From: a virus
Lineage: Duplodnaviria > Heunggongvirae > Uroviricota > Caudoviricetes
Strand: one strand, 5' to 3'
DNA: 64,000 nucleotides
IMG/VR virus record: IMGVR_UViG_3300017778_003242
Coordinates: 15,284 to 79,283 of that record
Shown: positions 5,696 to 61,694 of the stretch, piece by piece
Numbering within the stretch: the first letter of the stretch is position 1
Layout: the number at the start of each line of letters is the position of its first letter
Program-made: the position numbers and the translations under genes
The notes under the pieces: generated by a model
Told to the model about the DNA's origin: nothing
Databases searched by the model: none
Seen by the model: only the letters and a program-made list of their open reading frames with translations

Positions 5696-6037
5696 ATGAA
5701 AAATAAACGCAATCCGCCGCTGTCTTTCGCGTCCCAGTATGAAATCCTTCGTCCAGAGGATAGGGTCATCCTGTTCGCAATCATGGACAATGTCCGTGAG
5801 GGCAAGCGGTGCGTGATTCGGAACCGGGCGATGGATAACGCCTCGATCATCCTGTCCTATGCCGGGCTGATCCGGGTCGGCCAAGAGATCGGTCAACAGC
5901 CGGTCATATACGCGATCACGGCGCGCGGCGTGAAGTTCCACCAGTATATGCAGCAGAAGACCACCCCACAAGCGCAGATGGCGGCGTTGCCACCGTCACA
6001 CCCGCTGCGGACGCTACCACCCTCACAGGCCGCGTAG
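5696..6037 (+). CDS. hypothetical protein
   Basis: ORF after the terminator. The first ATG is at 5696; the listed start at 5660 is TTG. No motif. Confidence 0.3.
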   Translation: MKNKRNPPLSFASQYEILRPEDRVILFAIMDNVREGKRCVIRNRAMDNASIILSYAGLIRVGQEIGQQPVIYAITARGVKFHQYMQQKTTPQAQMAALPPSHPLRTLPPSQAA

Positions 6038-10996: not shown

Positions 10997-11712
10997 TAGT
11001 CGATGCTCGCGACCAGAGTAATAGCGATACCGGCCAGCAATTCGAACGCGGCGGGCATCGTGAATGTCAGGCGGTCACCGGCCACGAAACTGGTGAGCGT
11101 GGAGTTAAAGTGCGCTGCCGCGATCGACGTGAAGAACTCGATGGTGCCGAACGGCGTGCCATTCTTCTTCACCGTGATCATGACATCGAACGATCCAGTA
11201 TGGACAGTACCCGCGTACGCCCGTGAGCCGAGCAAGTCGGCGGGGAACGTCACGTCGCGCGTGAAGATGTACGTCAGGTCTTTGTTCTCGTCCACGCCTT
11301 CACCTGTGACGAAAAGCGATACGAGATGTTCATTGCCCGCCGCGCCGCCGCTGACGCCGCTGATCTCGTCCGACCCGTCACAGTACAGCAGGAGGCCGGT
11401 GCCAATCGGCACATCGGCAGTGACGGCGAAAGACCCTGCGCGAATCGTCAGGATGCCGTTGGTGTTGTTCTGGACATAGAAAAGGCGTTGCGTGTTCGGG
11501 ACAGTGACCGTCGTCGCGCCGAACGTGCCGGTGAAGACATGCCGGAAGAAGTCGGTGAACTGGGCAGTCGTCAGCGTCGTAGCCGCAGTGATCGCCGCTG
11601 TACGCGTCGCCTGCATCGCTTCTTCCAGCGCGCGGATAGCCTCGTTGATCGTCACTTCCTTGTTGGATTGTGACTGAGAGACTTCGGGGATGCTGAGAAT
11701 AGGGGTAGTCAT
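10996..11712 (-). CDS. tail structural protein
   Basis: 238 aa Thr/Ala/Gly-rich protein, translationally coupled (ATGA) to the flanking tail genes. Confidence 0.45.
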   Translation of the reverse strand: MTTPILSIPEVSQSQSNKEVTINEAIRALEEAMQATRTAAITAATTLTTAQFTDFFRHVFTGTFGATTVTVPNTQRLFYVQNNTNGILTIRAGSFAVTADVPIGTGLLLYCDGSDEISGVSGGAAGNEHLVSLFVTGEGVDENKDLTYIFTRDVTFPADLLGSRAYAGTVHTGSFDVMITVKKNGTPFGTIEFFTSIAAAHFNSTLTSFVAGDRLTFTMPAAFELLAGIAITLVASID

Positions 11713-14700: not shown

Positions 14701-15143
14701 TTGTACGGGATACGGCTTTCCTGTTGCTTGCGGAACTGATCCGAAAGAAGCTTGGCCCGGATGCCACGGAACAGAAGCGGCTCGTATTCCTGAATGACAG
14801 GGTCCGTGGTGTCGATGTTGGCACCATCATAGACCAGCAGATCGTCCATCCAGAGACGGACGAGCTTGGTCGCCGGGCCTTCGCCGAACCACACAGCGAA
14901 CGACGCGAAATAGTCATACGTGGACGTGGTGACCTTCGTTCCGCCGATGCCGAGGATCGCGCCCTTTTTCTTGGACGAGCGCGTGACCCGTTCTTCAATG
15001 GGGGCGAACCAGAGGTTTTGGCCATCGACAATACGCGATCCGAACACGTACGGGATGTTTTTCCCATACGATCCGCCACCGGCAAACTCTTCGACCTTGC
15101 CGATGTCGATGTTACGTTTCGCGCTGCCGAGCCTAAGTCCCAT
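11712..15143 (-). CDS. tail host-specificity protein (GTA ORFg15 / gpJ-like)
   Basis: 1143 aa. N-terminal GSYGKNIPYVFG region is typical of the alphaproteobacterial GTA / siphophage host-specificity protein. Follows the BR0599 gene. Confidence 0.65.
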   Translation of the reverse strand: MGLRLGSAKRNIDIGKVEEFAGGGSYGKNIPYVFGSRIVDGQNLWFAPIEERVTRSSKKKGAILGIGGTKVTTSTYDYFASFAVWFGEGPATKLVRLWMDDLLVYDGANIDTTDPVIQEYEPLLFRGIRAKLLSDQFRKQQESRIPYKLYLGTEDQEQDPTIVAIEGAANTPAYRGMCYIVFDRLKLEQFDNKIPKVRAEFIFDVGGSNISIWETTVATEISDRGTLQIDYKRGLIYKQNNGANEVSLDVYSLDGTLIRSVTDLTALQEGPIVIDMEFNQHYGYDGNGGDRYNSFTGEPEYSDHTNTKPLLGRRGGPMLYESPGSTTRCLFTVGRALSAIQYTINAHDIEVGLLSNITISTTGGIVSLATPVGVSDARFGFAYYMTGGILTMVRCDGADGSFKTDYATMLPAAFDLDTFSATGFSSVLGWDDGNGRVIGFVEGVKDSVSVVRMFAWTESNGLVWVTEVPFGVFSNETSSMFFPRLTGGHWAFTNGSQICAVNLADGVISTEYDGVNNGYFGISADIDKQVYDDSTSKIYMWEKNPSGPDVLQTIQLFLGDQTSSSLSSIVRKVASECGLVEGYDFDVSAIDDIPVPGYLISKTDEGKKHLDPLLEFYQINVVERDHRIYFEERQTVSLDTLTTDDMLSGGRGDVFKRNREEESALPQTYEVEYVDRIRDYEKGIQRASRVKYPIATTASTNTENFAIDIALDPADAKQQVEKLMYASWIERNAYEFGLPPRWLAYTPGDLLTFVQPSGYSSDIMLDRVSIGADFTMKAYSVEQSPGMYVSFATSATGQWSDPPVYLSAPSEPFLLDIPFLNDDDVPTSNNLSIGYWAGSDYGAETNSWPGAFLYRSYDNMIYDQLDARINRSNWGILTQALAAPDSPWVTDNTNVVHVFMNSGYLAASEYTISHETMISGPYNRAVICHADGTYELISFAEVVEVSDRALELHSLLRGRRGTDTNLVAAAGDRIVFLSDGTFDDDASTYGIFAQPVAQTLADDQYYKVVTRGLLVNETLAEQSNYTCADLKPYAPDHVTAFLDTVGDIVINWERRTRIGGEMEDLIDVPLSEATEAYEIDIYNVAGTTVLRTLTSTVSQVDYLAAIVLTDQLTATPATLKVGVYQMSATVGRGFGRIITVEVG

Positions 15144-28370: not shown

Positions 28371-30035
28371 TTACGCTCCCTTCTTGATCCCGGCATTGAC
28401 CGGGCCTTCCTTGGCGACTTCTTTCGCGACTTGGGCGTTCTTGTCCGCGAGCGCGAGCTGCGTGTCCTTGGTCTTGTCGGCGACCTTGAGCTGGCCCTCG
28501 GTCTGCGCGCCGATCTCTGCCATCTTCGGATTGTAGAACGCGCCGATCTGATCGGCCTTCTCTTTGAGAAGGTGGGCCAAATCCTCGTCCGTGTGGAAGT
28601 CTTCCGCGAGGATACCGCGGCGCTTCAGCTCGTTGATGAAGCCGACGCGCGAGATCGCGCGCTTGTCGTACGCGACTTGCAGCGTTTGCAGATCGACCAC
28701 GTCGCCACCTTCGAACGCGAAGTCGGTGTGGATGATGATCGAACCACCGTCGTTGCCGACGCCGCCCATCTGGGCCATGGCTTTGAAGCAGTTTTCAAGG
28801 ATGTCCTTGAATCCGAGCGCCATCCGCTGAAGGTCGGACGACGTGTTCTTTTCCTCGATAGAGCGTGACGTGGCCGTCTCGCGGTCTGGGCGCTTGCGCA
28901 GCAGCGACGCGCCGTAAAGACCCATCTGGTTTTCCAGATCGGCGAGGTTTTCCTTGGACGAGGTGAGGGCGAGGCCCTGATGCTCGACGTAGTAGTATTT
29001 GGAGTTCGGGTCTTCCAGCGTGAGCACGTTACGCGGGCCGATCGTGACGCTTCCCGCATCCTCCGGCGCGACGCCGGACGCGGCCAAGATCGGGAACGAC
29101 GCCACCGTCAAGGTGTTCATGTGGTCCGAATAGCGCTGATAGTGCAGCACGTTCATGTGGGCCAGATCGAGCAGGGGAGGCTTCGAAACCATGAAGCCGT
29201 CGCGGCGCGCGTAGAACGTGAAAATCGGAATGTAATCAAGGTCTGTGGGCTTGGCATCGACCTTTTTCCACGACTTGGCGGACGCGCCAGTCTTGCCCTC
29301 GATCTTCTTGTACATGCCGGTCTGGACGGAGCGCTTGCCCTCGTTATCAACGAACAGGGTCATCTCGCGGATGATCAGCTCTTCGACTTCGGCGAAGCCA
29401 TCACGCTTCGTGGTCATCTCGTACCAGCGGATGTGCGTCAGCACTTCGGCACCGTCTTGGCGCACGCTGTTGGCCGCGATGACATTCTCCGGATGGATGT
29501 GAACGAAGTAGGGGCGGATACCCTCTGCCTTCTCATCGGCCAGTGTGTACGTGCGGCTGGGGTCTTTGGCCGGAGTGTCCACGAGGATGTGGGTATAGCC
29601 CTTCGACACGCCGTCGCGGAAGACGCGCGCGGCGAATTGGTCGATGTGATTGCCTTCCAGATCGATGTCCTCGATCCAGCCGCCGGTCAGCAGCGTGTCC
29701 TTCTCCGCAGTCTCGCTCTTCTCTTCGCCGGACTTCTGGAGGACGCCGCGAATTTGCTCCGGGACATCGTCGCCGAATTGCAGCGCTTCGGTGAAGGGCT
29801 TACCCGACAGGGTCGCCACGGTCAGGTCGAAATAGTTGATCAGGATGGAGCGCTTCAGGCGTTCCTTGTAGTCTTCCGGATACTCGCGGCTGTGCTGCGG
29901 AAGGTAGCGAGTTCCGGCCAGACGCATGGCCTCGGTGCCGCCGAGCAGCGCGTTGATCAAGTCCCAGCGCTCATCCATGACCGCATGGAATTGGCCCGGC
30001 GTCGCCGGATTTTCCTTCTCGCGTTGGGAAGCCAT
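28371..30035 (-). CDS. portal protein
   Basis: 554 aa acidic protein immediately downstream of the large terminase. Confidence 0.65.
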   Translation of the reverse strand: MASQREKENPATPGQFHAVMDERWDLINALLGGTEAMRLAGTRYLPQHSREYPEDYKERLKRSILINYFDLTVATLSGKPFTEALQFGDDVPEQIRGVLQKSGEEKSETAEKDTLLTGGWIEDIDLEGNHIDQFAARVFRDGVSKGYTHILVDTPAKDPSRTYTLADEKAEGIRPYFVHIHPENVIAANSVRQDGAEVLTHIRWYEMTTKRDGFAEVEELIIREMTLFVDNEGKRSVQTGMYKKIEGKTGASAKSWKKVDAKPTDLDYIPIFTFYARRDGFMVSKPPLLDLAHMNVLHYQRYSDHMNTLTVASFPILAASGVAPEDAGSVTIGPRNVLTLEDPNSKYYYVEHQGLALTSSKENLADLENQMGLYGASLLRKRPDRETATSRSIEEKNTSSDLQRMALGFKDILENCFKAMAQMGGVGNDGGSIIIHTDFAFEGGDVVDLQTLQVAYDKRAISRVGFINELKRRGILAEDFHTDEDLAHLLKEKADQIGAFYNPKMAEIGAQTEGQLKVADKTKDTQLALADKNAQVAKEVAKEGPVNAGIKKGA

Positions 30036-30038
30036 GGG

Positions 30039-31472
30039 TTATCCTCGCTGTCGTCCGGCGCGACGTGAAGCCCTCCGCAGGTAATAACGGAGTTCGTCGC
30101 CGATGTGATCCTCGCTCTTTGTATCAACATCATCCGGGTCTTTCAAGTCTCGCGGAAGCGTTGGGACCAAATCAATGAAGTGTGTGCATGTACTAAAGAT
30201 GAACAATCCGGGGCGTTCACGTGTTCCGTGTTCGCCCGGAATTGAGTTCAGAAATCGCTCGCGCGCGACTTGCCAGCCCATCTTCCGGCTGTTCGGACCC
30301 TTGTCCGCCATGTCGAATCGGAGATGGAACGGGTCGGCCCGGAGCGTATCGTAAATCGATCGCCCGTGGCTCTTGTCGAAGATGTTCACGTCAGCCGGGC
30401 CAGCCGTCACGCGACCGCGGACACCGGCCTCTTCCTCGCACGCGACCATGCACTTAGCGATCTCCAGAGGCGTGAGGTTCAGGCCCTCATCCTCTTGGCC
30501 GCTGGTAGAGTACCACTCGCCGATCCGGAAGCTATCGCCGGGCACGAGGCCACGGTATATGCCCGGCCCAACCTCGACGCAGTCGCCATTACTTTCCGCC
30601 CATAGGCCATACGATCCGGGCTTGGCACCGCCCCAGTCGTACGCGCGCCGGATCGTCCACGTGTTGGGGATATAGAAGGGCTTGACGACGTGGACGCCAG
30701 CGTTCCAGATGTCATCGAACATGCCGCCCGACACAGCATCCCAGTCACCGAACAGCCACGCCTTCAGCTTCTCTTGGTTGCCCGCCGCCGACTGCTTAAG
30801 CGTCTGCACATACCGCGGATCAGTCCGCAGTAGTATCTTGTTTTCAATAAGAAATCCGGGAATAGCGAGGCGGGGAGGGGACATCATCCCATCCTCTTCC
30901 CGCTCCTGCCAGACCTTGTACCGATGGCTGGGGAGCTTGAACCGGCGCTTGACCCAGTTCTTGCCGACGCCGTACGGGTTCGTGGTGGACCGAATGATGC
31001 GAGGCATGTTAATCGGACCGGCAGAACGGTTGCACGAGAACATGCTGAGATAGCCCTTGTTCGTGGGCCACGTCGTCAACTCTTCCCATCCGATGAAAGG
31101 CAATTCCTGACCGTGCCACGACCAATAGTCGTTCTCGTCAAAGAAGTGCGCGAAGGTCAGCATCTCGCCGCCGGGCCAGACCCACGTCTTCTCGGTCTTG
31201 TTATAGACCGCGTCCGGATAGATGCGCCCGAATTCGCGCTTCGACTTTTCGATGATGTCGTCAAGGTCGCCGCTCTCGCGACGGAAGATCACGCCGCGCC
31301 AGTGCGAGCCATACCCCTTGCCGGTGTGCTGGGCGAACGCGAACAACATCGACCACGTCTTGCCGGGGCCGCGCTCGCCTTCGAACAGGACTTCCTTGAT
31401 CTTGCTCGACTGAAGGAACAGCGTTTGTGAGCCCGGTTGGGGCATCACAGCATCAGCTACCATTACGGACAT
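30039..31472 (-). CDS. terminase large subunit
   Basis: FEGERGPGKTW Walker A region. C-terminal nuclease-domain acidic residues. 477 aa. Confidence 0.8.
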   Translation of the reverse strand: MSVMVADAVMPQPGSQTLFLQSSKIKEVLFEGERGPGKTWSMLFAFAQHTGKGYGSHWRGVIFRRESGDLDDIIEKSKREFGRIYPDAVYNKTEKTWVWPGGEMLTFAHFFDENDYWSWHGQELPFIGWEELTTWPTNKGYLSMFSCNRSAGPINMPRIIRSTTNPYGVGKNWVKRRFKLPSHRYKVWQEREEDGMMSPPRLAIPGFLIENKILLRTDPRYVQTLKQSAAGNQEKLKAWLFGDWDAVSGGMFDDIWNAGVHVVKPFYIPNTWTIRRAYDWGGAKPGSYGLWAESNGDCVEVGPGIYRGLVPGDSFRIGEWYSTSGQEDEGLNLTPLEIAKCMVACEEEAGVRGRVTAGPADVNIFDKSHGRSIYDTLRADPFHLRFDMADKGPNSRKMGWQVARERFLNSIPGEHGTRERPGLFIFSTCTHFIDLVPTLPRDLKDPDDVDTKSEDHIGDELRYYLRRASRRAGRQRG

Positions 31473-43594: not shown

Positions 43595-43671
43595 TGGTAC
43601 GAAGGGAAAGAATCGAACTTTCGACCTCGCGGTTATCAACCGCGCGCTCTTCCCAACTGAGCTACCCTCGC
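43595..43671 (-). tRNA. tRNA-Ile (anticodon GAU)
   Basis: Reverse complement reads GCGAGGGTAGCTCAGTTGGGAAGAGCGCGCGGTTGATAACCGCGAGGTCGAAAGTTCGATTCTTTCCCTTCGTACCA. D-arm GCTC/GAGC, anticodon stem CGCGG/CCGCG with loop TTGATAA, T-arm GAAAG-TTCGATT-CTTTC, encoded CCA. Confidence 0.7.
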
Positions 43672-44182
43672 AAACGGTTAGTCGCGAGACATGGTAATTC
43701 GCTTCGGACCCTTGGACTTGCGGGCGAGCGCGGCCAGAGGCTTCGCCGCGGGTTTCTGGGCGACGGCTTTCTTCTGACGGGACTTCTTCAGCATGGACAT
43801 GGGCAATACCCCTTGAAATGATGGCCCGCCCGTACGCCGGAGCGCAGAGGGACGGGGCGTTACCTTTACGTTGTCCCATGTCCATGGACGGAAGTCAAGA
43901 CTATCGGGCTGTGGGCCGATAAGGGCTGTTATCGGGCGATGGGCCTTACCCCCTGCGGAGGCTAGAAGCCTTTTAACCCCCGTAAGGGATAAATTTCTAA
44001 AATTTTTTATGAAATCAAGGGGCTAAGAGGCGGGGCTATAATATAAGTACCCCCGGTCTAATTTCCTACCCTCATACGAGCGTATAATGACTGGCGTAGT
44101 AAGGTTAATGACCCATGTTGGGGCATTACCCCCTGTTAGGGTTAACAAATCCCTAAGCGGTAAGGTTAATCGATCGTTAAGG

Positions 44183-44300
44183 TTAATAAATAATAAAAAT
44201 AATAAATAATTAATTATTTATTATTTATTAATGTTACATTACATACTGTTAATGTTACATGCTATGTATATACTATGTGTTAAGGTTAATAACATACTAA
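44183..44300. repeat. nearly pure A/T low-complexity tract with palindrome AATAAATAATTAATTATTTATT
   Basis: Roughly 120 bp almost devoid of G/C in a 60% GC genome. Contains a perfect 22-bp AT palindrome at 44201-44222 and flanking AAGGTTAAT motifs. Confidence 0.6.
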
Positions 44301-44654
44301 TGCACACACCATGCTGTATAGGTTAATTGTTATTAACCATGCTCTATATAAGGGGGCTTAAATAGAGGGGGCTTAGCAGTGGGTTAACCTTAACAGAAAG
44401 CCACATTCTGTTAAGGTTAATAATTTGCGAATTTCTGGTATGGTTAATAAAGACCCTCAAAAAATTAACCAAGAAAGTAAGGTTAACAAATCATGTTGAA
44501 AAATTAACCCTAACAATGGATTAATTTAGTACCTCACAATTAGATTAAATTCATTTGAAATAACTGCCAATATCCCGCTATTCCGATAAAGGTAAAGAAA
44601 CCCATCATCCCTAACAGTCGCTTAATAGTGATCATGAAATTCCCCTTGTGTGGT

Positions 44655-44686
44655 AAGCCCCCTCTTTAGGAGGGGGCTTAGCCTTT
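44655..44686 (-). terminator. terminator downstream of minus-strand gene 44686-44934
   Basis: AAGCCCCCTC-TTT-AGGAGGGGGCTT hairpin. Confidence 0.5.
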
Positions 44687-44934
44687 CATTTACCGATGCC
44701 GAACTGGGCGGCGAGATTGCCTAACGCTTGGTTAAACCAGTAGATGAATTCCGCTTCCGTCTTGATCGTGCGGCCCTTCATCTGGGCGAGGCGTTGGGCG
44801 CGTTTCAGAACGTACAGGATAGGCTCTTTACCCTTGTAACCGAGCCCTGCGGCGATCTCGTCAATCGCGGCTTTCGTGGCGCTTGCGCCCGGCTGAGTGG
44901 CGTCGTTCAGTTTGGTCCAGTAAGAGGTGGTCAT
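44686..44934 (-). CDS. hypothetical protein (82 aa), divergently transcribed from cassette 1
   Basis: ACGGAGA SD before ATG 44934. Shares the palindromic operator with the rightward genes. Confidence 0.45.
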   Translation of the reverse strand: MTTSYWTKLNDATQPGASATKAAIDEIAAGLGYKGKEPILYVLKRAQRLAQMKGRTIKTEAEFIYWFNQALGNLAAQFGIGK

Positions 44935-45007
44935 TTGCTGTCTCCGTTTTGATGAGTTAGTTATGCCATAGGCTTGCAGGGAATGCAAGCGCATAATGCA
45001 GAATTCT

Positions 45008-45027
45008 ACATTACAAATTTGTAATGT
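45008..45027. promoter_or_regulatory. operator palindrome ACATTACAAATTTGTAATGT (cassette 1, divergent)
   Basis: Perfect 20-bp inverted repeat followed by AATGCA(A)AA..GCTATTGCATATCC and SD AACGGAG. Confidence 0.55.
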
Positions 45028-45110
45028 TCAAAATGCAGAAAATGCAAAAAAGGCTATTGCATATCCGGCCAACCTATGCGAGAAAGGGTCATCAACAACG
45101 GAGACACCAA

Positions 45111-45293
45111 ATGCAAATCAACTACCGCCAGACAGACGAAGAAATCCGCCGCGAATGGGCGGGCGTCGAGCGCCGCGCGCCGATCACGGCAGAAACGGCT
45201 CCCAAAGCCGTCGTGAAGCGCGACCGCTTCGCTTGCGTGGTTGTGGCCGTGTTCGTGGCCGTCGCGATCCTCGGCGTTGTGGTGACGTTCTAA
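45111..45293 (+). CDS. small membrane protein (60 aa)
   Basis: ATG 45111 after CAACAACGGAGAC SD. C-terminal TM (FACVVVAVFVAVAILGVVV). Confidence 0.45.
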   Translation: MQINYRQTDEEIRREWAGVERRAPITAETAPKAVVKRDRFACVVVAVFVAVAILGVVVTF

Positions 45294-45454
45294 TGGACAC
45301 GGAAAACAGCCTTTACCTGCATGGCCGCAAGCCTACGCTGGGCGAGATCATGCGACAGCTCAAAATCGTCGAGAAAGTCTGCCAAGAGATTCGCGACGAA
45401 GAGACTTCCTTTCAACCCCGCGACCAATTCGCGGAATTGCTTTTCGAGGATTGA
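45293..45454 (+). CDS. small protein (53 aa)
   Basis: TAATG-coupled. MDTENSLYLHGRKPTLGEIMRQ... Confidence 0.35.
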   Translation: MDTENSLYLHGRKPTLGEIMRQLKIVEKVCQEIRDEETSFQPRDQFAELLFED

Positions 45455-45458
45455 TCAC

Positions 45459-45779
45459 ATGCCCGGAGATATGGAACTGATCGCCAGCGACGCGCGCGGA
45501 ATTTACATTCCGCAGCATGTGGCCGAAGCTTGCACGCTGGAGCCTATCAGGAAGACGCCGCAAAGCATCGCCCGGCTAGCCGTCAACGTGGCGACATGCC
45601 TAGAAGGGCCGGACGCCGAAAACTACTGGGAAGCATGGAGCGAGATTCTAGACCTAGCCTGCATCCGAGTCGGACGCGCGCGGTGGTCGCTCTATCAGGA
45701 CGGCGATTGCTGGGCAATTCGAATGTGTGCCCGCGCGCGGAAAGAAGCGGCCCACGCGTTTGGGTGGGATGTGGATTGA
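45459..45779 (+). CDS. hypothetical protein (106 aa)
   Basis: GAGGA SD before ATG 45459. Confidence 0.4.
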   Translation: MPGDMELIASDARGIYIPQHVAEACTLEPIRKTPQSIARLAVNVATCLEGPDAENYWEAWSEILDLACIRVGRARWSLYQDGDCWAIRMCARARKEAAHAFGWDVD

Positions 45780-45787
45780 AGCAAGAA

Positions 45788-45823
45788 CCATGCCAACCGC
45801 GAGGTCGGCATGGTTAATTTTTC
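45788..45823 (+). terminator. rho-independent terminator
   Basis: CCATGCCAACCGCGAGGTCGGCATGG hairpin + TTAATTTTTC. Confidence 0.6.
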
Positions 45824-45833
45824 TTCTCGGTTT

Positions 45834-45862
45834 GTTAACCTTAACAACCTATTAAGGTTAAC
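45834..45862. promoter_or_regulatory. TTAA-N7-TTAAG hairpin element (GTTAACCTTAACAACCTATTAAGGTTAAC), copy 1
   Basis: 11-bp inverted repeat conserved after several small genes. Matches the CtrA-box-like spacing TTAA-N7-TTAA. Confidence 0.45.
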
Positions 45863-45938
45863 AAATCATTAACGCGGAAAAATAGGTCGTCAATCCATTA
45901 TATCACAAAAATCCGACCGGGTCAAGAGGAAAAATGCA

Positions 45939-45958
45939 ACATTACAAATTTGTAATGT
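45939..45958 (+). promoter_or_regulatory. operator palindrome ACATTACAAATTTGTAATGT (cassette 2)
   Basis: Identical 20-bp palindrome. Downstream TTGCAT -35-like element and AACGGAG SD. Confidence 0.55.
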
Positions 45959-46035
45959 AGCAGAAAAATGCAAAAAGCCTATTGCATATCCTGATCAATG
46001 TGCTATCTCTATTGCATCAACAACGGAGCGACCAA

Positions 46036-46134
46036 ATGGAAACGGTTCTGAAAATCGCCTTTTTCTTCTTCCCTTCGGAAGAACTCAGCAACCGGATTTG
46101 CGCGGTGCGCTTTCACAAAAAATGGAGCCGCTAA
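46036..46134 (+). CDS. tiny protein (32 aa)
   Basis: ATG 46036 after the cassette-2 SD. Hydrophobic FFFF stretch. Below the ORF-track cutoff. Confidence 0.25.
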   Translation: METVLKIAFFFFPSEELSNRICAVRFHKKWSR

Positions 46135-46135
46135 C

Positions 46136-46396
46136 ATGAAACTGGGACCGAAAGACAAGGTTATTGCGAAGGGCCATTCGCTCGTGGTTTTCGAATGCAC
46201 GGACATGGGTCCGGACGATGGCAATCGTTATTTTGTCTGCTTCTCCAATGAGAACGGCAAACACTCGTCCAGCCTCGGCTGCGCCTTGTCCATGGGCTTC
46301 ATGGACGACAACGGAAGCGGCCAAGGCGATTTCAAGTTTACGCCTGTCCAGATGATTTTCCTCGAACGCACGGCGGACTCGCTCCCCGACTATTAG
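46136..46396 (+). CDS. hypothetical protein (86 aa)
   Basis: ORF. No motif. Confidence 0.4.
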   Translation: MKLGPKDKVIAKGHSLVVFECTDMGPDDGNRYFVCFSNENGKHSSSLGCALSMGFMDDNGSGQGDFKFTPVQMIFLERTADSLPDY

Positions 46397-46412
46397 TCAA
46401 GCGAATAGTGCA

Positions 46413-46432
46413 ACATTACAAATTTGTAATGT
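46413..46432 (+). promoter_or_regulatory. operator palindrome (cassette 3) with TTGACC-N17-CATAAA promoter
   Basis: GCAACATTACAAATTTGTAATGTTGC, then TTGACCTATGCAGTGAGCTATGGCATAAAGGGTCATCAACAACGGAG. Confidence 0.55.
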
Positions 46433-46509
46433 TGCACTTTTTTCGAATTATCCAGTTGACCTATGCAGTGAGCTATGGCATAAAGGGTCATCAACAACGG
46501 AGAACGTCA

Positions 46510-46713
46510 ATGACCAAGAAACACTTCATCGCCATCGCGAAGCGCATGGCCGACCACCGCTTCAACCTCTCGAAAATCTCGGACAAGGCGACGCGTGACG
46601 CAAGCCTGAACGTCCTCGACGACACGATTCGCGATCTGGCGATTACTTTCGGAGACGTTAACCCGAACTTCGATTTCCGCCGCTTCGCCGACGCCTGCGG
46701 TTTGCCCAACTAG
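46510..46713 (+). CDS. hypothetical protein (67 aa)
   Basis: ATG 46510 after AACGGAGAAC. Confidence 0.45.
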   Translation: MTKKHFIAIAKRMADHRFNLSKISDKATRDASLNVLDDTIRDLAITFGDVNPNFDFRRFADACGLPN

Positions 46714-46726
46714 GGAAAGGAAGAAT

Positions 46727-46762
46727 TAACCCTGCGCCCCCACCGCGCAGGGTTAATTTTTG
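46727..46762 (+). terminator. rho-independent terminator
   Basis: TTAACCCTGCGCCCCCACCGCGCAGGGTTAATTTTT. Confidence 0.6.
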
Positions 46763-46772
46763 GCCTCGCGGC

Positions 46773-46801
46773 GTTAACCTTAACAGCCTATTAAGGTTAA
46801 C
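46773..46801. promoter_or_regulatory. TTAA-N7-TTAAG hairpin element, copy 2
   Basis: GTTAACCTTAACAGCCTATTAAGGTTAAC. Confidence 0.45.
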
Positions 46802-46877
46802 AAACCATTAACGCGGAAAAAATGCTTTTAGCCTCAGAATATCATATAAAGCGAGCCGGGTCAATAAGAAAAATGCA

Positions 46878-46897
46878 ACATTACAAATTTGTAATGT
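46878..46897 (+). promoter_or_regulatory. operator palindrome (cassette 4) with TTGACG-N17-CATAAA promoter
   Basis: Near-identical duplicate of cassette 3. Confidence 0.55.
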
Positions 46898-46974
46898 AGC
46901 ACTTTTTTCGAATTATCCTGTTGACGTATGCAGAGAGCTATGGCATAAAGGGTCATCAACAACGGAGAACTGCA

Positions 46975-47241
46975 ATGACAATGTTTTCGGGCCAAGTTTC
47001 GGTTTCAGTGTTCCAATGCCTGACCATCGCGTCCGGGCTGGATATGTACCGGAAATTCAAAATGATGCCGAACCGCAACTATACGCCGAAAGCCATGATG
47101 GACGCGGCGTCGCGGATCACGGGCCAGAAATTCAAGGCTCGCGATTACGAAGGCGCTGCAATCGCCCTGCGGGCGCTGGCGGAAAAGACCAAGAACGAAA
47201 TCCACGCTGGCCAGCATGAAGGGAACTCGATCACCCCTTAA
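46975..47241 (+). CDS. hypothetical protein (88 aa)
   Basis: ATG 46975 after AACGGAGAAC. N-terminal hydrophobic segment. Confidence 0.45.
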   Translation: MTMFSGQVSVSVFQCLTIASGLDMYRKFKMMPNRNYTPKAMMDAASRITGQKFKARDYEGAAIALRALAEKTKNEIHAGQHEGNSITP

Positions 47242-47271
47242 GCCCGGCCCCGGCTCGGGGACGGGAGTTGA

Positions 47272-47303
47272 CCATGGCCCGAAAGGGCCATGGTTAATTT
47301 TTT
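47272..47303 (+). terminator. rho-independent terminator
   Basis: CCATGGCCCGAAAGGGCCATGG + TTAATTTTTT. Confidence 0.6.
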
Positions 47304-47313
47304 GCCTCAATCC

Positions 47314-47342
47314 GTTAACCTTAACAGCCTATTAAGGTTAAC
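47314..47342. promoter_or_regulatory. TTAA-N7-TTAAG hairpin element, copy 3
   Basis: CGTTAACCTTAACAGCCTATTAAGGTTAAC. Confidence 0.45.
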
Positions 47343-47418
47343 AACTCATTAACCGCCGAAAATAGGTCGTCAATCCATTATATCACAAAAATCCGGGCCT
47401 GTCAAGTAGAAAAATGCA

Positions 47419-47460
47419 ACATTACAAATTTGTAATAATGCAAAATAGCTATTGCATATC
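47419..47460 (+). promoter_or_regulatory. operator cassette 5 (ACATTACAAATTTGTAAT + ATGCAAAATAGCTATTGCAT)
   Basis: Variant of palindrome 1 followed by second palindrome ATGCAAAATAGCTATTGCAT. Confidence 0.5.
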
Positions 47461-47572
47461 CTCCAATCATGTGAGATACCTTGCACATCGAGAGAGGGGA
47501 GCGGGACAAGCAACCGCCCACCGGAAGCCCCGGCAGCTCCCCTCTCCCGACCAAAAAAATGGAGACGAAATC

Positions 47573-47839
47573 ATGAGCCGCGACCTGATCAATATCGACG
47601 CAGTGGCCCCCGCACATTGGGCCTGCTATTTCTTCAATGACGACCCGGAAGGCCTGTCTGATGCGGATATCGCCGCCGCTGATGCCTTCATCGCTCGCGT
47701 GGACGCTGGAGCCCCGGCGCACATGGACGAAGAGGAAGAGCATTATTTTGCGCATGGCCATCAGGTCGCGCTGCTTTGCCCCGAAGCGCCGCGCCTCGGT
47801 TGCACTCTGGCCATGTATTACTTTTTGAAGGAGGCATAA
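47573..47839 (+). CDS. hypothetical acidic protein (88 aa)
   Basis: GGAGA SD before ATG 47573. Confidence 0.45.
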   Translation: MSRDLINIDAVAPAHWACYFFNDDPEGLSDADIAAADAFIARVDAGAPAHMDEEEEHYFAHGHQVALLCPEAPRLGCTLAMYYFLKEA

Positions 47840-47841
47840 GC

Positions 47842-48138
47842 GTGGAACACTCAACGCAAATGGTTCTCGTCCTGCTTCATACGCGGATTCCGGGCAATGA
47901 GAATTGCGCTCGCATGACCCTCGATCGCCCGGCCACTAGGCGAGCCGCTGAGCGCTACGCGCGCGACGCGTGGGATTTGGTCGCGACGCTCGACGATCTC
48001 GCCCACCGCTTCGCGTGGGACTATAACCTGCCTGTCCTGTTGGCCCGTTCCATGCTGGTCACATGCTGTCAGGAAATTTACAAGCGGGAGGGGTTTGACT
48101 TCAATCAACCCCTCGACGTGATCCGGGAGGTTTTCTAG
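47842..48138 (+). CDS. hypothetical protein (98 aa)
   Basis: GTG start 7 nt after GAAGGAGG SD. Confidence 0.4.
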   Translation: MEHSTQMVLVLLHTRIPGNENCARMTLDRPATRRAAERYARDAWDLVATLDDLAHRFAWDYNLPVLLARSMLVTCCQEIYKREGFDFNQPLDVIREVF

Positions 48139-48383
48139 TGGCGCAATCGTTTGGTGGACGCCTGCGTCCAATCATTGAAGGGGTATACACGGAAGGCGCA
48201 CAAGCGCCTTCCAAGCCTCCCTTTGAGTGTGAGCGAACCGGCTGGACGCCCGCCGACCTATTGCCGCGATGGGTCGCGGATATCGGCTGGATTATCGGGC
48301 TATTGCTGCGCAAGATATGGCTTTACGTTTGTGCGCCGACCGGCGCACTGGCGTTCGGGATCGCCTTCCTGCATCTGAGCTAG
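48138..48383 (+). CDS. small membrane protein (81 aa)
   Basis: GTG start overlapping the upstream stop. TMs (GWIIGLLLRKIWLYVCAPTGALAFGIAFL). Confidence 0.35.
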   Translation: MAQSFGGRLRPIIEGVYTEGAQAPSKPPFECERTGWTPADLLPRWVADIGWIIGLLLRKIWLYVCAPTGALAFGIAFLHLS

Positions 48384-48465
48384 GGGTTTCTCTCCGTTTC
48401 CCCTAGTGACACTGGCCCGGCTTGCCACGCGCGCGAGCCGGGCCACTTTTTTGAAATAATGCAAA

Positions 48466-48490
48466 ATAGCTATTGCATACCCGGCTATTC
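48466..48490 (+). promoter_or_regulatory. operator cassette 6 (ATGCAAAATAGCTATTGCAT only)
   Basis: Second-palindrome copy without the ACATTACAAA element, upstream of gene 48531. Confidence 0.4.
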
Positions 48491-48530
48491 TATGCCATCA
48501 ATAGCAGGTCAGCAAAAACGGAGATGCGAC

Positions 48531-48806
48531 ATGGCTTTGACCTTCACCATCGACCAGTTTAACGAGTACATCGAGAATGGCCCGTACGCATGGCCCGGCG
48601 GATATCCGCTCTACTTCGTCACGCGTGACGGTGAGGCGCTGTCATTTGACGCCGTTCTCGCCAATATCGAGTACATTCGCGAGGCAATCCAGCAGGACTA
48701 TAGCACTGACTGGCGCGTGATCGCTTGTGAGATCAATTGGGAAGACGCCGACCTGATTTGCTCCCACACTGGCAAGCGAATCGAGTGCGCGTACCCGCAG
48801 GACTAA
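48531..48806 (+). CDS. hypothetical protein (91 aa)
   Basis: ATG after AAAAACGGAGATG. Confidence 0.45.
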   Translation: MALTFTIDQFNEYIENGPYAWPGGYPLYFVTRDGEALSFDAVLANIEYIREAIQQDYSTDWRVIACEINWEDADLICSHTGKRIECAYPQD

Positions 48807-48812
48807 GGAAAG

Positions 48813-48850
48813 GTTAACCGCGGCCCGCAAGGGTCGTGGTTAATTTTTCG
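48813..48850 (+). terminator. rho-independent terminator
   Basis: GGTTAACCGCGGCCCGCAAGGGTCGTGGTTAATTTTTC. Confidence 0.6.
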
Positions 48851-48859
48851 CCGCCGCGC

Positions 48860-48907
48860 GTTAACCTTAACAGCCTGTTAACCTTACCGCCCTGTTAAGG
48901 TTAACAA
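48860..48907. promoter_or_regulatory. TTAACC/TTAAGG hairpin element, copy 4 (expanded)
   Basis: GTTAACCTTAACAGCCTGTTAACCTTACCGCCCTGTTAAGGTTAAC. Confidence 0.4.
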
Positions 48908-48981
48908 CTCATTAACGCCGAAAAAATGGTTTTAGCCTCAGAATATCATAGCCCTGTCAAAGTGTCAAGGCATAAAATGCA

Positions 48982-49021
48982 ACATTACAAATTTGTAATA
49001 ATGCAAAATAGCTATTGCATA
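48982..49021 (+). promoter_or_regulatory. operator cassette 7
   Basis: ACATTACAAATTTGTAATAATGCAAAATAGCTATTGCAT, identical to cassette 5. Confidence 0.5.
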
Positions 49022-49070
49022 TCCTCCAATCATGTGGCATTGTCTCTTTATCAGAAACGGAGTTGATCAG

Positions 49071-49253
49071 ATGACCTACCTCGAAACCCGCGCCGCCGTC
49101 TCCCGCGCTCTTGAAGAGCCGGGCGTTGAACACGTCAATTCGGATGCCTTCTTCGCGGCGTGCGACAAGTGGGATATCGAGCCCGGCGATCTGGAAGACG
49201 CCCTGTTCGAGTGTGGCGTGCAAGAGGCGGAAGACCGCCGCCACTTTGACTAG
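49071..49253 (+). CDS. hypothetical acidic protein (60 aa)
   Basis: ATG after AAACGGAG. Confidence 0.4.
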   Translation: MTYLETRAAVSRALEEPGVEHVNSDAFFAACDKWDIEPGDLEDALFECGVQEAEDRRHFD

Positions 49254-49315
49254 ACTGGAGCCCCGAAAGCTCTGGAGCCCCTGAACCGGGCTCAACTGGA
49301 CTGGCCCGCAGTGGC

Positions 49316-49345
49316 TACCCGCCCTTAACCATGGGGCGGGTTTTT
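49316..49345 (+). terminator. rho-independent terminator
   Basis: CCCGCCCTTAACCATGGGGCGGG + TTTTTC. Confidence 0.55.
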
Positions 49346-49369
49346 CTTAGTTAATGCCTATTAACCAAG

Positions 49370-50200
49370 AAACTATGGTTAATGGCCCATTAACCTTAAC
49401 ACGCCGTTAACCTTAACGCCGTTAACCTTAATAGCCTGTTAAGGTTAACGGAGCATGAAAATTAATCGACGCGTCGGATTTATCGGTTATTAACCTTGAA
49501 GTCCCCCGCGGCTTCTCAAAGCTGAAGTCCCCCTCGGCCTTGAAGTCCCCCACGGCCTCTTGATTAACCTTAACAGATTAACCTTAATAGCCTGTTAAGG
49601 TTAATAAGAAATGTCTTATTAACATGCACGGCTCGCATCAGAATTTTCTTATGAATATATTAACCTTAACGCCTTGAAGTCCCCCTCGGCCTCTCGCAAA
49701 ATTAACCTAAACGGCGCTAATTAACCCTAATTTATAGCCGATTAAGGTTAATTAGTATACTTATAGACGAGGTTATACGGGCTGTTAGGGTTAATTTTAC
49801 GTTATACGGCGTTAAGGCTAATTAGCGCTCCGCCCTCCCGGCCTTATGGCTAATATAGCTCGACCATTAACCTTCCGCCCTATGGCGTCCAGTGTGAGGT
49901 CGCAAAAGGGGCATTTGGGCCTTTATTTATAAGGGTTTTTGACAATCACTACCTATTAACCTTCCTCTCATCTTAAAGTGCTGAGAAAATATTATGGATA
50001 ATGGAGTGTCCCAAAAGGGGATTGGCACCCTATTATAAACCCTAATAGGCTTAATTAGGGTGATGCCACCCTACTTATACGGGGACGGTAACCCTAACCG
50101 CCCTCCCCGCCCTGAGCTGGCTCTTCACCTATCTTAGGAACGTTATCGCGCACCGCCTTTTAACCTAAACGCTGCCCAACCTCTTAAGACGGGGTGACCC
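49370..50200. repeat. noncoding region densely packed with TTAACC(T)TAA / TTAACCAT motifs
   Basis: More than 25 copies of TTAACC or GGTTAA in about 830 bp. Includes tandem GTTAACCTTAA units and TTAACACGCCGTTAAC, a perfect TTAA-N7-TTAAC. Confidence 0.6.
49497..49692 (+). repeat. iteron-like direct repeats TGAAGTCCCC-NNGGCCT (x4)
   Basis: Copies at 49497, 49523, 49541 and 49674. Adjacent CGACGCGTCG palindrome and AT-rich stretch. Confidence 0.55.
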
Positions 50201-50965: not shown

Positions 50966-51001
50966 TTGCATCACACTGATCAGAGCAAGCAAGGGCATCA
51001 C

Positions 51002-51247
51002 ATGACTGACGGCGAAAGCATCGTTGACACAATGGCCCGGCGCACAATCGCCAAAGCGATCGCGACGGCCAATCGTTCCGGCACGGCGACGGATCACTAC
51101 CGGACGTTGTCCGGTCAACAGATTCAGTTTGCCGCGAATTGGGACGCGGGGGAGTGCGCCCTTTCAATGCAGTGGACGGTCAACGGCGCGGCCTGCAATC
51201 CGTCTATCTGCGCCCACCTTATCGACTGCCACATCAGGAGCCTCTAG
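51002..51247 (+). CDS. hypothetical protein (81 aa)
   Basis: AAGGG SD before ATG 51002. Confidence 0.4.
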   Translation: MTDGESIVDTMARRTIAKAIATANRSGTATDHYRTLSGQQIQFAANWDAGECALSMQWTVNGAACNPSICAHLIDCHIRSL

Positions 51248-51623: not shown

Positions 51624-51890
51624 ATGACGCACGGCTTCACCATCATCGACGACATGGCCCGCAAGGCAACGCTGCGCGCGGTCACCGGCGCGAACTTCGC
51701 GCTGGAGGAAAACATTTACACGCTGCGCGACGGCCATCAAGTCATCGCGTCGGCGTGCTGGGAAAATGGAGGCGTGACCCTCAAATACCGGCTTGACGGC
51801 CTGACGGTAACGCGCGAAAGAGCGGCAGAGGTTATCGACGACAACTGGCGCGCGGTTGCATTCGCGGCCATGAGCGAGAAGGCGGTCTAA
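51624..51890 (+). CDS. hypothetical protein (88 aa)
   Basis: ORF preceded by a TTGCATC...AGAGCAAC motif. Confidence 0.45.
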   Translation: MTHGFTIIDDMARKATLRAVTGANFALEENIYTLRDGHQVIASACWENGGVTLKYRLDGLTVTRERAAEVIDDNWRAVAFAAMSEKAV

Positions 51891-52410: not shown

Positions 52411-52637
52411 AGGAATTCAGTGTAGACGTGCCCGTCTGGGCAACGCTGTACATCAAGGCCAACTCTGAAGAGGAAGCCAAGGCGAAGGCGCTGGAATACG
52501 TCGGCACGCACGTCAAGCCTAAATTCGCGACGCTCAACATTGAGAGCGACGGTGATGAGCCGGAAGGCGTGAGCTTGTCCGAAGTGGCCACGATCCACGG
52601 CCTGCCTGACGATGCAACTCTGGACGAGTGCGACTAA
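52407..52637 (+). CDS. hypothetical acidic protein (76 aa)
   Basis: GTG start overlapping the upstream stop. Confidence 0.35.
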   Translation: MKEFSVDVPVWATLYIKANSEEEAKAKALEYVGTHVKPKFATLNIESDGDEPEGVSLSEVATIHGLPDDATLDECD

Positions 52638-52909
52638 TGCCGAAAGGCGTGTACGCCCGGCGACCGGACGCCAAGCGCCACCCGGCGCAAACGATGGCGG
52701 ACGGGCGTCTGGCGCACAACCGGAAGCCATCAGCACGAACGCGCACGCTTCTTGCACTGATGGAGAAAGAGCGATCCTGCGACGCTGTGGCAAAGGCGAC
52801 GGGCCTTGCGGTAAGCAACGTGTGGGATAGAGTGAAACGCTGGCGTCCCGAATTGCTCGGGCGGCGGTATATCAAGAGAAGCGCAAGGGAACGATATGAA
52901 TCACGCTGA
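52628..52909 (+). CDS. small HTH DNA-binding protein
   Basis: CDAVAKATGLAVSNVWDRVKRW helix-turn-helix-like segment. 93 aa. Confidence 0.4.
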   Translation: MRLMPKGVYARRPDAKRHPAQTMADGRLAHNRKPSARTRTLLALMEKERSCDAVAKATGLAVSNVWDRVKRWRPELLGRRYIKRSARERYESR

Positions 52910-56272: not shown

Positions 56273-56428
56273 ATGGGCCACGTCTGCCAATGTGGCGAGC
56301 GCCACCGCTGGACGCTGTACGTTTACGCGCACCAAAGCGAGACGCTTGTTCACACGTGCAAGTGCGGTATCAAAACGAAACTGCGGCGGCTGATGACCGT
56401 ACCGAAGCGAGAACTGTTCTATGGTTAA
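56273..56428 (+). CDS. small zinc-ribbon protein (51 aa)
   Basis: CQCGERH...CKCG Cys pairs. Alternative GTG start at 56240. Confidence 0.3.
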   Translation: MGHVCQCGERHRWTLYVYAHQSETLVHTCKCGIKTKLRRLMTVPKRELFYG

Positions 56429-56566
56429 CGGTTAACCACGCGATCGGCAGTAAGGTTAAAGCGCCCGCGATCCGCGGCCATTAACCCTAACACTCACCGT
56501 CCGGCCACGTGGCACGGCGCTTGCATTGTGTTGTCTGGGCACATCAACGTGTCCCGATATTTGACA

Positions 56567-61018: not shown

Positions 61019-61139
61019 GGCTTGCCCCGTGGCCCGGATCATGCAACGCTCTGGACATCCCGGCGCTGCGCCGGACGAAAGGAGGTGATCCAAGCATCTC
61101 ACCCCCTGCCCCGATCCGACTGGGGCGCTGCGACGGAGG

Positions 61140-61370
61140 CGGCTATGAAGTAAGATTAATGGCGTTGGCGGTGAAATCCCGCGTGTTAATCAGGGCCGGG
61201 AAGTAGTGTTAACACCTGTACCCCGGCCCGCCCAACACAAGAAATCGCAGTAAGGTTAACATGACACCGCCCTCATGTTAAGATTAACGGCGATCGTTGC
61301 TATTAACCCTAACGGCAGTTTCGTTTCATTAACCTTAATTCGCGTTAACCATAACGCCGCGCCGCGATCT
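61140..61370. repeat. second TTAACC / TTAACCAT motif cluster
   Basis: GTAAGGTTAAC, ATGTTAAGATTAAC, TATTAACCCTAAC, CATTAACCTTAAT, CGCGTTAACCATAACG. Confidence 0.5.
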
Positions 61371-61403
61371 TCATCCAAATTTCATGCAAACCGGCACCGA
61401 GTC

Positions 61404-61454
61404 TGAAGTCCCCTCCGGCCTCCCAGCGTTTCAAGTCTGAAGTCACCTCCGGCC
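61404..61454 (+). repeat. second copy of TGAAGTCCCC-NNGGCCT iterons (x2)
   Basis: TGAAGTCCCCTCCGGCCT and TGAAGTCACCTCCGGCCT, 33 bp apart. Confidence 0.5.
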
Positions 61455-61694
61455 TCACAGCTTTTCAGCATTGACTTTTCCCGCGACCATCGGCATCTTC
61501 GCAAATCCACGTCCCTCCCGTCTTGGCTTTTCTGTCCGAGCGCGACATCTGGACAGTGTGACGCGGCCCGATTATTGCACCCCTTTACTGAGGGCGACAG
61601 ATCGGGCCGCAAACACTCTGTCAGAAAAATGTGGACGTTTATCTGACAACGTGCTAAGGCTCGAATTCGCGAATTCTTGCAACCGGAATGGACC

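Follow-up and report, generated by a model that had tools for sequence, protein, structure and literature searches.

A repeated composite cassette was found in a 64,000-nucleotide (nt) stretch of a tailed virus of the Caudoviricetes (IMG/VR virus record IMGVR_UViG_3300017778_003242, positions 15,284 to 79,283; hereafter the window), between positions 45008 and 49062. The surrounding region carries early orphan genes arranged as independent transcription units split by this reused composite module, and both the parts of the module and their order are readable directly from the sequence. A full cassette contained six elements in the order intrinsic terminator, double CtrA box, leftward promoter, palindrome, rightward extended -10 promoter, and leader with ribosome-binding site. 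The explanation regarded as best was given about an even chance of being right: the units would be transcribed by host RNA polymerase, the TTAA-N7-TTAA boxes would be bound by the host regulator CtrA, the palindrome CATTAC-N6-GTAATG would be bound by a host regulator of the CopR/CusR/UzcR type, and the cassettes would also serve as recombination modules, with binding, transcription starts and gene functions all deduced from sequence.

Architecture and promoters of the cassettes

Seven promoter units drive 13 open reading frames (ORFs) of 32-106 amino acids (aa), with three genes each behind cassettes 1 and 5 and two behind cassette 2. The promoter-gene-terminator array described in the initial annotation was borne out, as the repeats are far beyond chance and lie in the early region at the late/early divergence point. 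The annotation had also placed one gene of 60-100 aa behind each cassette and a terminator with TTAACC hairpin after every unit; small genes do follow the cassettes, with a wider size range and some multi-gene units, and the terminator and hairpin close five of the seven units, with no such pair after 46396 or 48383. Cassette 3 has neither CtrA boxes nor a leftward promoter, and cassette 6 has no palindrome, CtrA box or leftward promoter.

The longest repeat family measured 157 nt, was present in four copies and contains the leftward promoters. Alignment of four window copies with three copies from a diverged relative showed sharp invariant islands at the end of the terminator (GGTTAATTTTT), at the TTAA half-sites, at both hexamers (-35 and -10) of the leftward promoter and at AAAATGCAACATTACAAATTTGTAAT. 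The terminator stems vary between cassette copies, and the sequence between the islands drifts.

All -35, -10 and start positions are predictions based on consensus, the start being taken as 7 nt past the -10 hexamer. All seven rightward promoters combined an extended -10 (TGn) with a -10 hexamer that is weak, and had a -35 of TTGCAT or TTGACN at a spacer of N16-17. Host sigma-70-type RNA polymerase would start rightward at these promoters, and the transcript would carry a short conserved leader with a Shine-Dalgarno sequence and one to three small genes before stopping at an intrinsic terminator. The TTGACC/TTGACG-N17-CATAAA promoters first annotated are present at 46456 and 46921. A second element, ATGCAAAATAGCTATTGCAT, was exact at 47438, 48459 and 49001, with diverged copies at 45968 and 45042. 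It had been called a palindrome, a description that failed because the reverse complement differs by a 2-nt offset and the centre varies among relatives; ATGCAA...TTGCAT alone is conserved in relatives, and TTGCAT is the -35 hexamer. The ribosome-binding site (A)ACGGAG, said to be the same everywhere, is found ahead of g0, the divergent gene, and of the first gene in six of the seven units, cassette 5 having ATGGAGA instead. The long leader of cassette 5 folds into a strong hairpin that is kept in two relatives, where two base pairs have changed in a compensatory way, and that may be a cis-acting regulatory RNA ahead of the DUF6926 gene.

Near-consensus promoters on the minus strand, missed in the initial annotation, lie just left of four palindromes (Table 1), and that of cassette 5 has the form TTGACA-17-TATAAT with an upstream TG. 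In the four full cassettes, the CtrA boxes fall at about +19 to +50 of the predicted leftward transcript, so that a bound protein would block leftward elongation.

Candidate binding sites for host regulators

The 20-mer ACATTACAAATTTGTAATGT was perfect at 45008, 45939, 46413 and 46878 and matched at 18/20 positions at 47419 and 48982, with zero expected by chance. Seven cassettes had been credited with it; six copies were found, and the unit at 48459 has none. The pattern CATTAC-N6-KTAA gave seven sites in the window against 0.05 expected. The palindrome matched the E. coli HprR/CusR box CATTACAAAATTGTAATG (PMC9302797) at 17/18 positions. The UzcR site of C. crescentus (m_5 motif) is CATTAC-N6-TTAA, present in 44 of 57 chromatin immunoprecipitation sequencing (ChIP-seq) regions at 43 or 53 bp upstream of starts (review PMC8963506). 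When one genome per species was scanned for the exact 18-mer, 86 stretches were counted, with a single copy each. Among the matches listed, at least 12 exact 18-mers lay 26-126 nt upstream of genes for OmpR-family regulators, and all three such regulators tested scored above the cut-off of TIGR01387 (heavy-metal regulator subfamily). Exact copies upstream of heavy-metal response-regulator genes occurred in beta- and gammaproteobacteria.

The palindrome is a candidate box for a response regulator of the CopR/CusR/HprR/UzcR type. It has the same half-sites and N6 spacing as the boxes of that family and is likewise intergenic between divergent promoters. Judged from predicted starts, it may also lie at a similar distance, about 43-60 bp upstream, the full span of the predicted distances being 58.5-74.5 nt in the window and 42.5-54.5 nt in the second phage group. 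It differs in being located in a phage, multicopy, perfectly palindromic and upstream of orphan genes; its right half-site is one base off the UzcR consensus, and regulator binding is here a prediction.

The box centre lies 58.5 nt from all four predicted leftward starts, 64.5 nt from the g0 start, and 58.5, 58.5, 67.5, 68.5, 68.5 and 74.5 nt from the predicted rightward starts. The palindrome stands upstream of both predicted -35 elements in every cassette bearing it, which argues for the position of an activator and not of an operator; a weak alternative promoter overlaps it at cassette 1 only. In the preferred explanation, it would bind a dimeric winged-helix regulator of the CopR/CusR/HprR/UzcR family, most likely encoded by the host, and between divergent promoters it would serve for activation in both directions. 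Strict phasing of the box by 10-bp helical turns was considered and holds only in part, the rightward distances not being uniform. A reading in which the palindrome filled the spacer of the g0 promoter was withdrawn, as the conserved promoter TTGCAT-N17-CATAAC sets the box centre at -64.5. The blastn match MW462191 was rejected as a phage, the stretch examined looking like bacterial DNA under a phage label: MW462191.1 21992-36011 (L135), labelled 'Bacteriophage sp.', carries ccm cytochrome-biogenesis genes, glnE and an htrA-regulator-kinase operon, with a box-like site CATGACAAATTTGTAAG upstream of that operon.

The second kind of site is the TTAACC hairpin, GTTAACCTTAAC-N6-TTAAGGTTAAC-N6-TTAAC, which holds TTAA-N7-TTAA twice. 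All 13 TTAA-N7-TTAA sites of the 64 kb fall in 44166-49584 (0.27 expected), and the decamer TTAAGGTTAA with at most one mismatch gave 43 matches against 0.74 expected, nearly all in the array region. The hairpin stem was invariant in seven copies, with 0/21 pairs covarying, a pattern that points to the DNA sequence, and not to a folded RNA, as the object of selection; because the stem is conserved as sequence, a small or structured RNA was dropped as an explanation. The hairpin is a pair of putative CtrA boxes.

The scan of viral contigs showed the hairpin many times in two contigs of 317-322 kb. One of them was identified by megablast as Caulobacter phage CcrSC, and CcrBL9 was also a megablast match. 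The terminal repeats of CcrSC/CcrBL9 have the same order of terminator, TTAACC hairpin and promoter, and up to 28/29 positions of the -10-to-Shine-Dalgarno module are identical between them and the window. The CATTAC-N6-GTAATG palindrome was absent from the Caulobacter jumbo-phage loci examined. Clusters of CtrA boxes have been published as a signature of Alphaproteobacteria phages (Mascolo et al. 2022, PMC9437464), where CtrA was shown by gel-shift and reporter assays to bind and control sites of this kind in phiCbK, in which it activates, in Brevundimonas phage Delta, in which it represses, and in a Mesorhizobium phage.

The window sites, located in intergenic gaps beside promoters of orphan genes and between divergent modules, match the LPEG signature, and the putative CtrA component is known biology in a new phage. 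As in the LPEG or 'lytic deferment' phages (PMC9437464), TTAA-N7-TTAA is confined to the non-coding and orphan-gene region between divergent modules, the sites lie beside small genes of unassigned function, and the hairpin with its promoter-leader module is common to the window and CcrSC/CcrBL9. The window differs in that its boxes form an inverted pair inside a repeated module, that this module adds a terminator, a leftward promoter and a second palindromic site, and that four cassettes place the boxes downstream of the predicted leftward start. Host CtrA, a cell-cycle regulator, would bind the box pairs after the terminators and the box arrays in both flanking gaps, and in four cassettes the bound protein would block a short leftward transcript antisense to the upstream gene. 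The host is probably a CtrA-bearing alphaproteobacterium, perhaps of the Caulobacterales, because the CtrA-box signature is present and phages of Caulobacter, Brevundimonas and Sphingobium have the module and g6 in common with the window. Two non-coding stretches, 61020-61680 and 56420-56500, contain TTAAGGTTAA-like half-sites with no full TTAA-N7-TTAA box and may be further regulatory gaps ahead of later plus-strand genes.

Related phages, a second lineage and competing explanations

The palindrome might instead be the operator of a dimeric regulator encoded by the phage, which would switch the early units on or off, its likeness to host boxes being coincidental; this was held to be possible, though on the unlikely side. 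Repeated perfect palindromes of 20-32 nt in an early region are classic phage operator behaviour. In a relative with 78% identical g0 (L131, 1150-2190), four copies of ATCAC-N6-GTGAT occupy the palindrome's place, abutting a -35 of TTGGACA, and such drift is expected of a regulator and operator evolving together; no terminators, hairpins or leftward promoters occur between the early genes of L131. A weak winged-helix hint was seen at 52628-52909. No DNA-binding domain scored above cut-off in about 40 window ORFs, most of which are orphans and could hide an unrecognised DNA-binding fold, and no response-regulator homologue was found in the window or the viral loci (tblastn, E<=1). The protein of g0 is a four-helix orphan that gave no fold match, and its sequence and conserved helices do not vary with operator type among relatives, contrary to what a phage-encoded partner of the site would suggest. 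The palindrome also lies upstream of the promoters and not over them. The single DNA-binding regulator of the initial annotation was not upheld, there being at least two distinct kinds of site plus the conserved ATGCAA...TTGCAT, and no phage-encoded DNA-binding protein having been found. Host response regulators would be the best candidates for binding the cassette sites, not a phage repressor.

Evidence on the same question came from a second group of phages. The palindrome was multicopy in eight viral contigs, two of them relatives of the window and six forming a group of their own, which lacks CtrA boxes and has a GC content of 45-47%. No proteins shared between this group and the window were detected by tblastn (E<=1e-4) in the partial stretches of contigs compared, and the second lineage is apparently unrelated to the window phage. 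In its contigs, the identical palindrome (16-22 nt) is flanked on one side by a leftward TTGACA-17-TAAAAT promoter and on the other by a rightward promoter with a small gene, and it lies about 54.5 nt from the predicted leftward start and about 43 or 53.5 nt from the rightward one. Palindromes after each gene (e.g. TGACAAATTTGTCA) take the place held by CtrA boxes in the window. As the site and layout are common to both groups without common genes in the stretches compared, a host factor is favoured over a phage-encoded regulator. Megablast of one contig of this group (L016) against the sequenced phage genome collection gave no match. The units of L016 end in a perfect palindrome, GGGTGTGACAAATTTGTCACACCC or CNGCTGTTACAATGTAACAGCNG, with no T run, at 5040-5065, 5757-5781, 6443-6466 and 7601-7624, just downstream of the predicted leftward start. 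We take GGGTGTGACAAATTTGTCACACCC to resemble the E. coli CusR box.

Two viral contigs are related to the window, with protein identities of 95-100% and 66-95%. Comparison with the 96-97% identical contig showed that 46140-46442 (g2b and the cassette-3 palindrome) is replaced there by a different 78-aa ORF and that one cassette with a 53-aa ORF stands there in place of 48454-49389 (units 6 and 7); both replacements end at cassette boundaries. Promoter types swap between orthologous genes in a more distant relative. Since the modules are repeated, the cassettes would also act as recombination points for gene swaps. These exchanges fit a view in which the repeats are mainly recombination scaffolds and their motifs ordinary promoter and terminator parts with no dedicated regulators. 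As a full account this was judged improbable: recombination calls for similarity but for neither perfect palindromes nor the TTAA-N7-TTAA spacing, the islands of invariant sequence coincide with known protein-site motifs and the sequence between them drifts, and the apparently unrelated phage group has the palindrome and layout in common, not the repeat sequence. A scaffold role is itself compatible with the preferred explanation.

The promoter-early stem-loop (PeSL) of T4-like phages is a composite of terminator and early promoter whose repeats accompany gene swapping (PMC2839356, PMC4122927). In both systems, a composite terminator and early-promoter repeat flanks orphan genes in a plastic region, and insertions, deletions and replacements between close relatives end in repeats. 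The sequence and phage type are unrelated, the window being of a siphophage with no T4-like genes among those scanned, and the window cassettes add putative transcription-factor sites and a divergent promoter, which are outside the PeSL definition. The window cassettes are an analogue of PeSL, not a member.

A third possibility, considered very unlikely, is that the TTAACC arrays of the gaps (about 17 nt spacing, beside an AT-rich block) are not CtrA sites and serve a phage protein as iterons of a replication origin or as partition sites. In its favour, the repeats are found both directly repeated and inverted, 14-17 nt apart, the stretch 44183-44300 is AT-rich, and the TTAACC motif is kept in all relatives carrying g0. 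Against it, the same hairpin follows individual terminators within the gene array and is also present in Caulobacter jumbo-phage terminal repeats, for which experiments have shown CtrA binding to sites of this type, every full site fits TTAA-N7-TTAA, and g0 has no homologue by tblastn in the sequenced phage genome collection.

Several observations weigh against the explanation by host regulators. A 97% identical relative lacks the palindrome at its cassette-3-type promoter, so that the site can be dispensed with there, and the change to ATCAC-N6-GTGAT is a specificity shift of a kind more often expected when a regulator is encoded by the phage and evolves together with its site. The published right half-site of UzcR is TTAA, here GTAA; most of the 18-mer genome matches listed are not beside regulator genes; and the distances from box to rightward start are not uniform. 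At more than 100 nt upstream of the rightward promoters, the CtrA boxes are distant for direct activation; these promoters have weak -10 hexamers and starts that are consensus predictions only; and the predicted leftward transcripts have no product or demonstrated target. The proposed host link to CtrA/UzcR rests on motif identity and on modules shared with Caulobacter phages. Lastly, five alphaproteobacterial genomes (L059, L077, L100, L116 and L121) have the exact 18-mer about 160-380 nt upstream of nrdJ (class II ribonucleotide reductase).

The nrdJ-upstream 18-mers adjoin an NrdR-box-like sequence and DnaA boxes, which suggests a conserved host site of an unassigned regulator. An NrdR box was considered for the palindrome because these five 18-mers precede nrdJ beside an NrdR-like box; it was dropped, the half-site spacing being 2 nt too short and the centres 18 bp apart, not 31-32.

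Genome setting, gene content and significance

The window is part of a siphophage genome, identified by its tape-measure, portal, terminase, ribonucleotide reductase and helicase genes. The minus strand encodes the tape-measure protein (17460-20363), a tail protein (11712-15143), the portal (28371-30035) and the large terminase (30039-31472), and the plus strand encodes ribonucleotide reductase and helicases. The late genes point leftward and occupy about 6-43 kb, the early genes point rightward and begin at 45 kb, and the cassette array sits at the divergence point, bordered by two low-GC non-coding gaps (about 44000-44680 and about 49340-50200). Neither megablast of 44000-50000 nor blastn of one cassette gave a match in the sequenced phage genome collection. 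The best portal identity to any sequenced phage was 42%, and by these comparisons the phage is not close to any sequenced phage. A search of 43-51 kb against Rfam brought only tRNA to threshold; a phage-borne tRNA-Ile (anticodon GAT) lies at 43595-43671 on the minus strand, just left of the left gap. The positions of all array features are shown in Table 1.

Table 1. Features of the cassette array and its flanking gaps (window positions; CtrA boxes putative)
Feature	Position	Strand	Details
Left non-coding gap	44085-44515	.	TTAAGGTTAA-type CtrA half-site array; full TTAA-N7-TTAA box at 44166
Left-gap AT-rich block	~44183-44300	.	
Degenerate candidate response-regulator box CATTACATACTGTTAA	44237-44252		In left gap; seventh palindrome copy
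g0, divergent gene, 82 aa	44686-44934	-	Shine-Dalgarno AACGGAGA
g0 promoter	TTGCAT 44983-44988; TGg-CATAAC 44960-44965	-	Spacer N17; conserved in relatives
Cassette 1	45008-45103	+	Palindrome 45008-45027; ATGCAA-N9-TTGCAT 45042-45062
Cassette 1 promoter	-35 45057-45062; -10 45080-85	+	Shine-Dalgarno 45098-45103
Unit 1	45111-45779	+	g1, g1b, g1c
g1, 60 aa	45111-45293	+	Hydrophobic C-terminal stretch resembling a membrane helix
g1b, 53 aa	45293-45454	+	
g1c, 106 aa	45459-45779	+	phrog_21544
Full cassette 2	45787-46028	.	Terminator 45787-45823; double CtrA box 45834-45873; palindrome 45939-45958
Cassette 2 leftward promoter	-35 45920-45925; -10 45897-45902	-	Span 45925->45897
Cassette 2 rightward promoter	-35 45982-45987; -10 46004-46009	+	Shine-Dalgarno 46023-46028
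Unit 2	46036-46396	+	g2a, g2b
g2a, 32 aa	46036-46134	+	Conserved in relatives
g2b, 86 aa	46136-46396	+	Other gene in its place in 97% identical relative
Cassette 3	46407-46502	+	32-nt perfect palindrome 46407-46438 enclosing core box, then T run
Cassette 3 promoter	-35 TTGACC 46456-46461; -10 CATAAA 46479-46484	+	Shine-Dalgarno 46497-46502
g3, 67 aa	46510-46713	+	
Full cassette 4	46726-46967	.	Terminator 46726-46762; double CtrA box 46773-46812; palindrome 46878-46897
Cassette 4 leftward promoter	-35 46859-46864; -10 46836-46841	-	Span 46864->46836
Cassette 4 rightward promoter	-35 46921-46926; -10 46944-46949	+	Shine-Dalgarno 46962-46967
g4, 88 aa	46975-47241	+	
Full cassette 5	47267-47565	.	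Terminator 47267-47303; double CtrA box 47314-47353; palindrome 47419-47438
Cassette 5 leftward promoter	TTGACA 47400-47405; TATAAT 47377-47382	-	Spacer 17 nt; span 47405->47377
Cassette 5 rightward promoter	ATGCAA..TTGCAT 47438-47457; -10 47475-47480	+	Shine-Dalgarno ATGGAGA 47559-47565
Cassette 5 structured leader	~47490-47553	+	
Unit 5	47573-48383	+	g5a, g5b, g5c
g5a, 88 aa	47573-47839	+	DUF6926
g5b, 98 aa	47842-48138	+	
g5c, 81 aa	48138-48383	+	
Terminator and cassette 6	48413-48523	+	Terminator 48413-48455; ATGCAA..TTGCAT 48459-48478
Cassette 6 promoter	-35 48473-48478; -10 48496-48501	+	Shine-Dalgarno 48518-48523
g6, 91 aa	48531-48806	+	phrog_18452
Full cassette 7	48813-49062	.	Terminator 48813-48848; triple TTAACC element with CtrA boxes 48860-48916; palindrome 48982-49001
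Cassette 7 leftward promoter	-35 48963-48968; -10 48940-48945	-	Span 48968->48940
Cassette 7 rightward promoter	ATGCAA..TTGCAT 49001-49020; -10 49038-49043	+	Shine-Dalgarno 49057-49062
g7, 60 aa	49071-49253	+	Terminator downstream at 49317-49349
Right non-coding gap	49360-50170	.	Dense TTAACC-type half-site array
Right-gap full CtrA boxes	49379, 49396, 49428, 49584		
Right-gap GAAGTCCCCCNCGGC repeats	49498-49690		Four copies

Only three of the 13 array ORFs matched any family, and none of those families is functionally informative. The initial annotation had proposed a host-takeover or anti-defence island, of which the host-takeover type fits, since the array genes are mostly orphans. The best homologues of g6 lie in terminal-repeat early regions of Caulobacter, Brevundimonas and Sphingobium phages. 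The 32-aa ORF g2a (METVLKIAFFFFPSEELSNRICAVRFHKKWSR) was 96.9% identical in contig L018, with a similar ORF in the distant relative L131, and is probably a real micro-gene. Two small ORFs at 50966-51247 and 51624-51890 have similar N-terminal sequences (MTDGESIVDTMARRTIAKA and MTHGFTIIDDMARKATLRA, respectively) and may be paralogues. Besides the four GAAGTC(C/A)CC-NN-CGGC repeats of the right gap, two occur in a third gap (61405-61453), and a relative carries four copies in reverse complement (L134:197-541).

Small early genes in promoter-terminator units are also found in the host-takeover module of Bacillus phage SPO1, where many such genes are clustered and every group of them has to itself a strong promoter of host type, a conserved ribosome-binding site and a terminator. 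In phage lambda, a strong promoter gives rise to the short oop RNA, which runs antisense into the 3' end of the gene upstream, and the predicted leftward transcripts of the window would likewise read into the upstream gene. Neither system has homology to the window, and the SPO1 units are not known to carry sites for host response regulators.

What appears to be new at this locus is the second palindromic site, the divergent promoters and the recurrence in a second, apparently unrelated lineage. A further-reaching proposal is that two apparently unrelated lineages independently put their early orphan genes under a host two-component regulator of the CopR/CusR/UzcR type that responds to envelope or metal stress, by way of a perfect palindromic box set between divergent promoters, with CtrA boxes on the same mobile cassette in the Caulobacter-type lineage also gating a strong antisense promoter; this is put forward tentatively, as something that is possible and still rather doubtful. 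The locus offers short defined DNA fragments with clear predictions, and the recurrence of palindrome and layout in the second phage group provides an independent test. If a phage protein binds the palindrome instead, the locus would still be a clean case of a repeated operator and divergent-promoter module driving gene shuffling.

Clusters of CtrA boxes in phages represent a recent and experimentally backed idea, that of phages reading the host cell cycle. The sites described here suggest that this phage reads both the cell-cycle and the stress state of its host. If true, the locus would extend cell-cycle reading to a second host signalling pathway, early expression would integrate host cell-cycle state and envelope stress, possibly including stress caused by the infection, and both kinds of site would be packed in one portable module moving orphan genes between phages.

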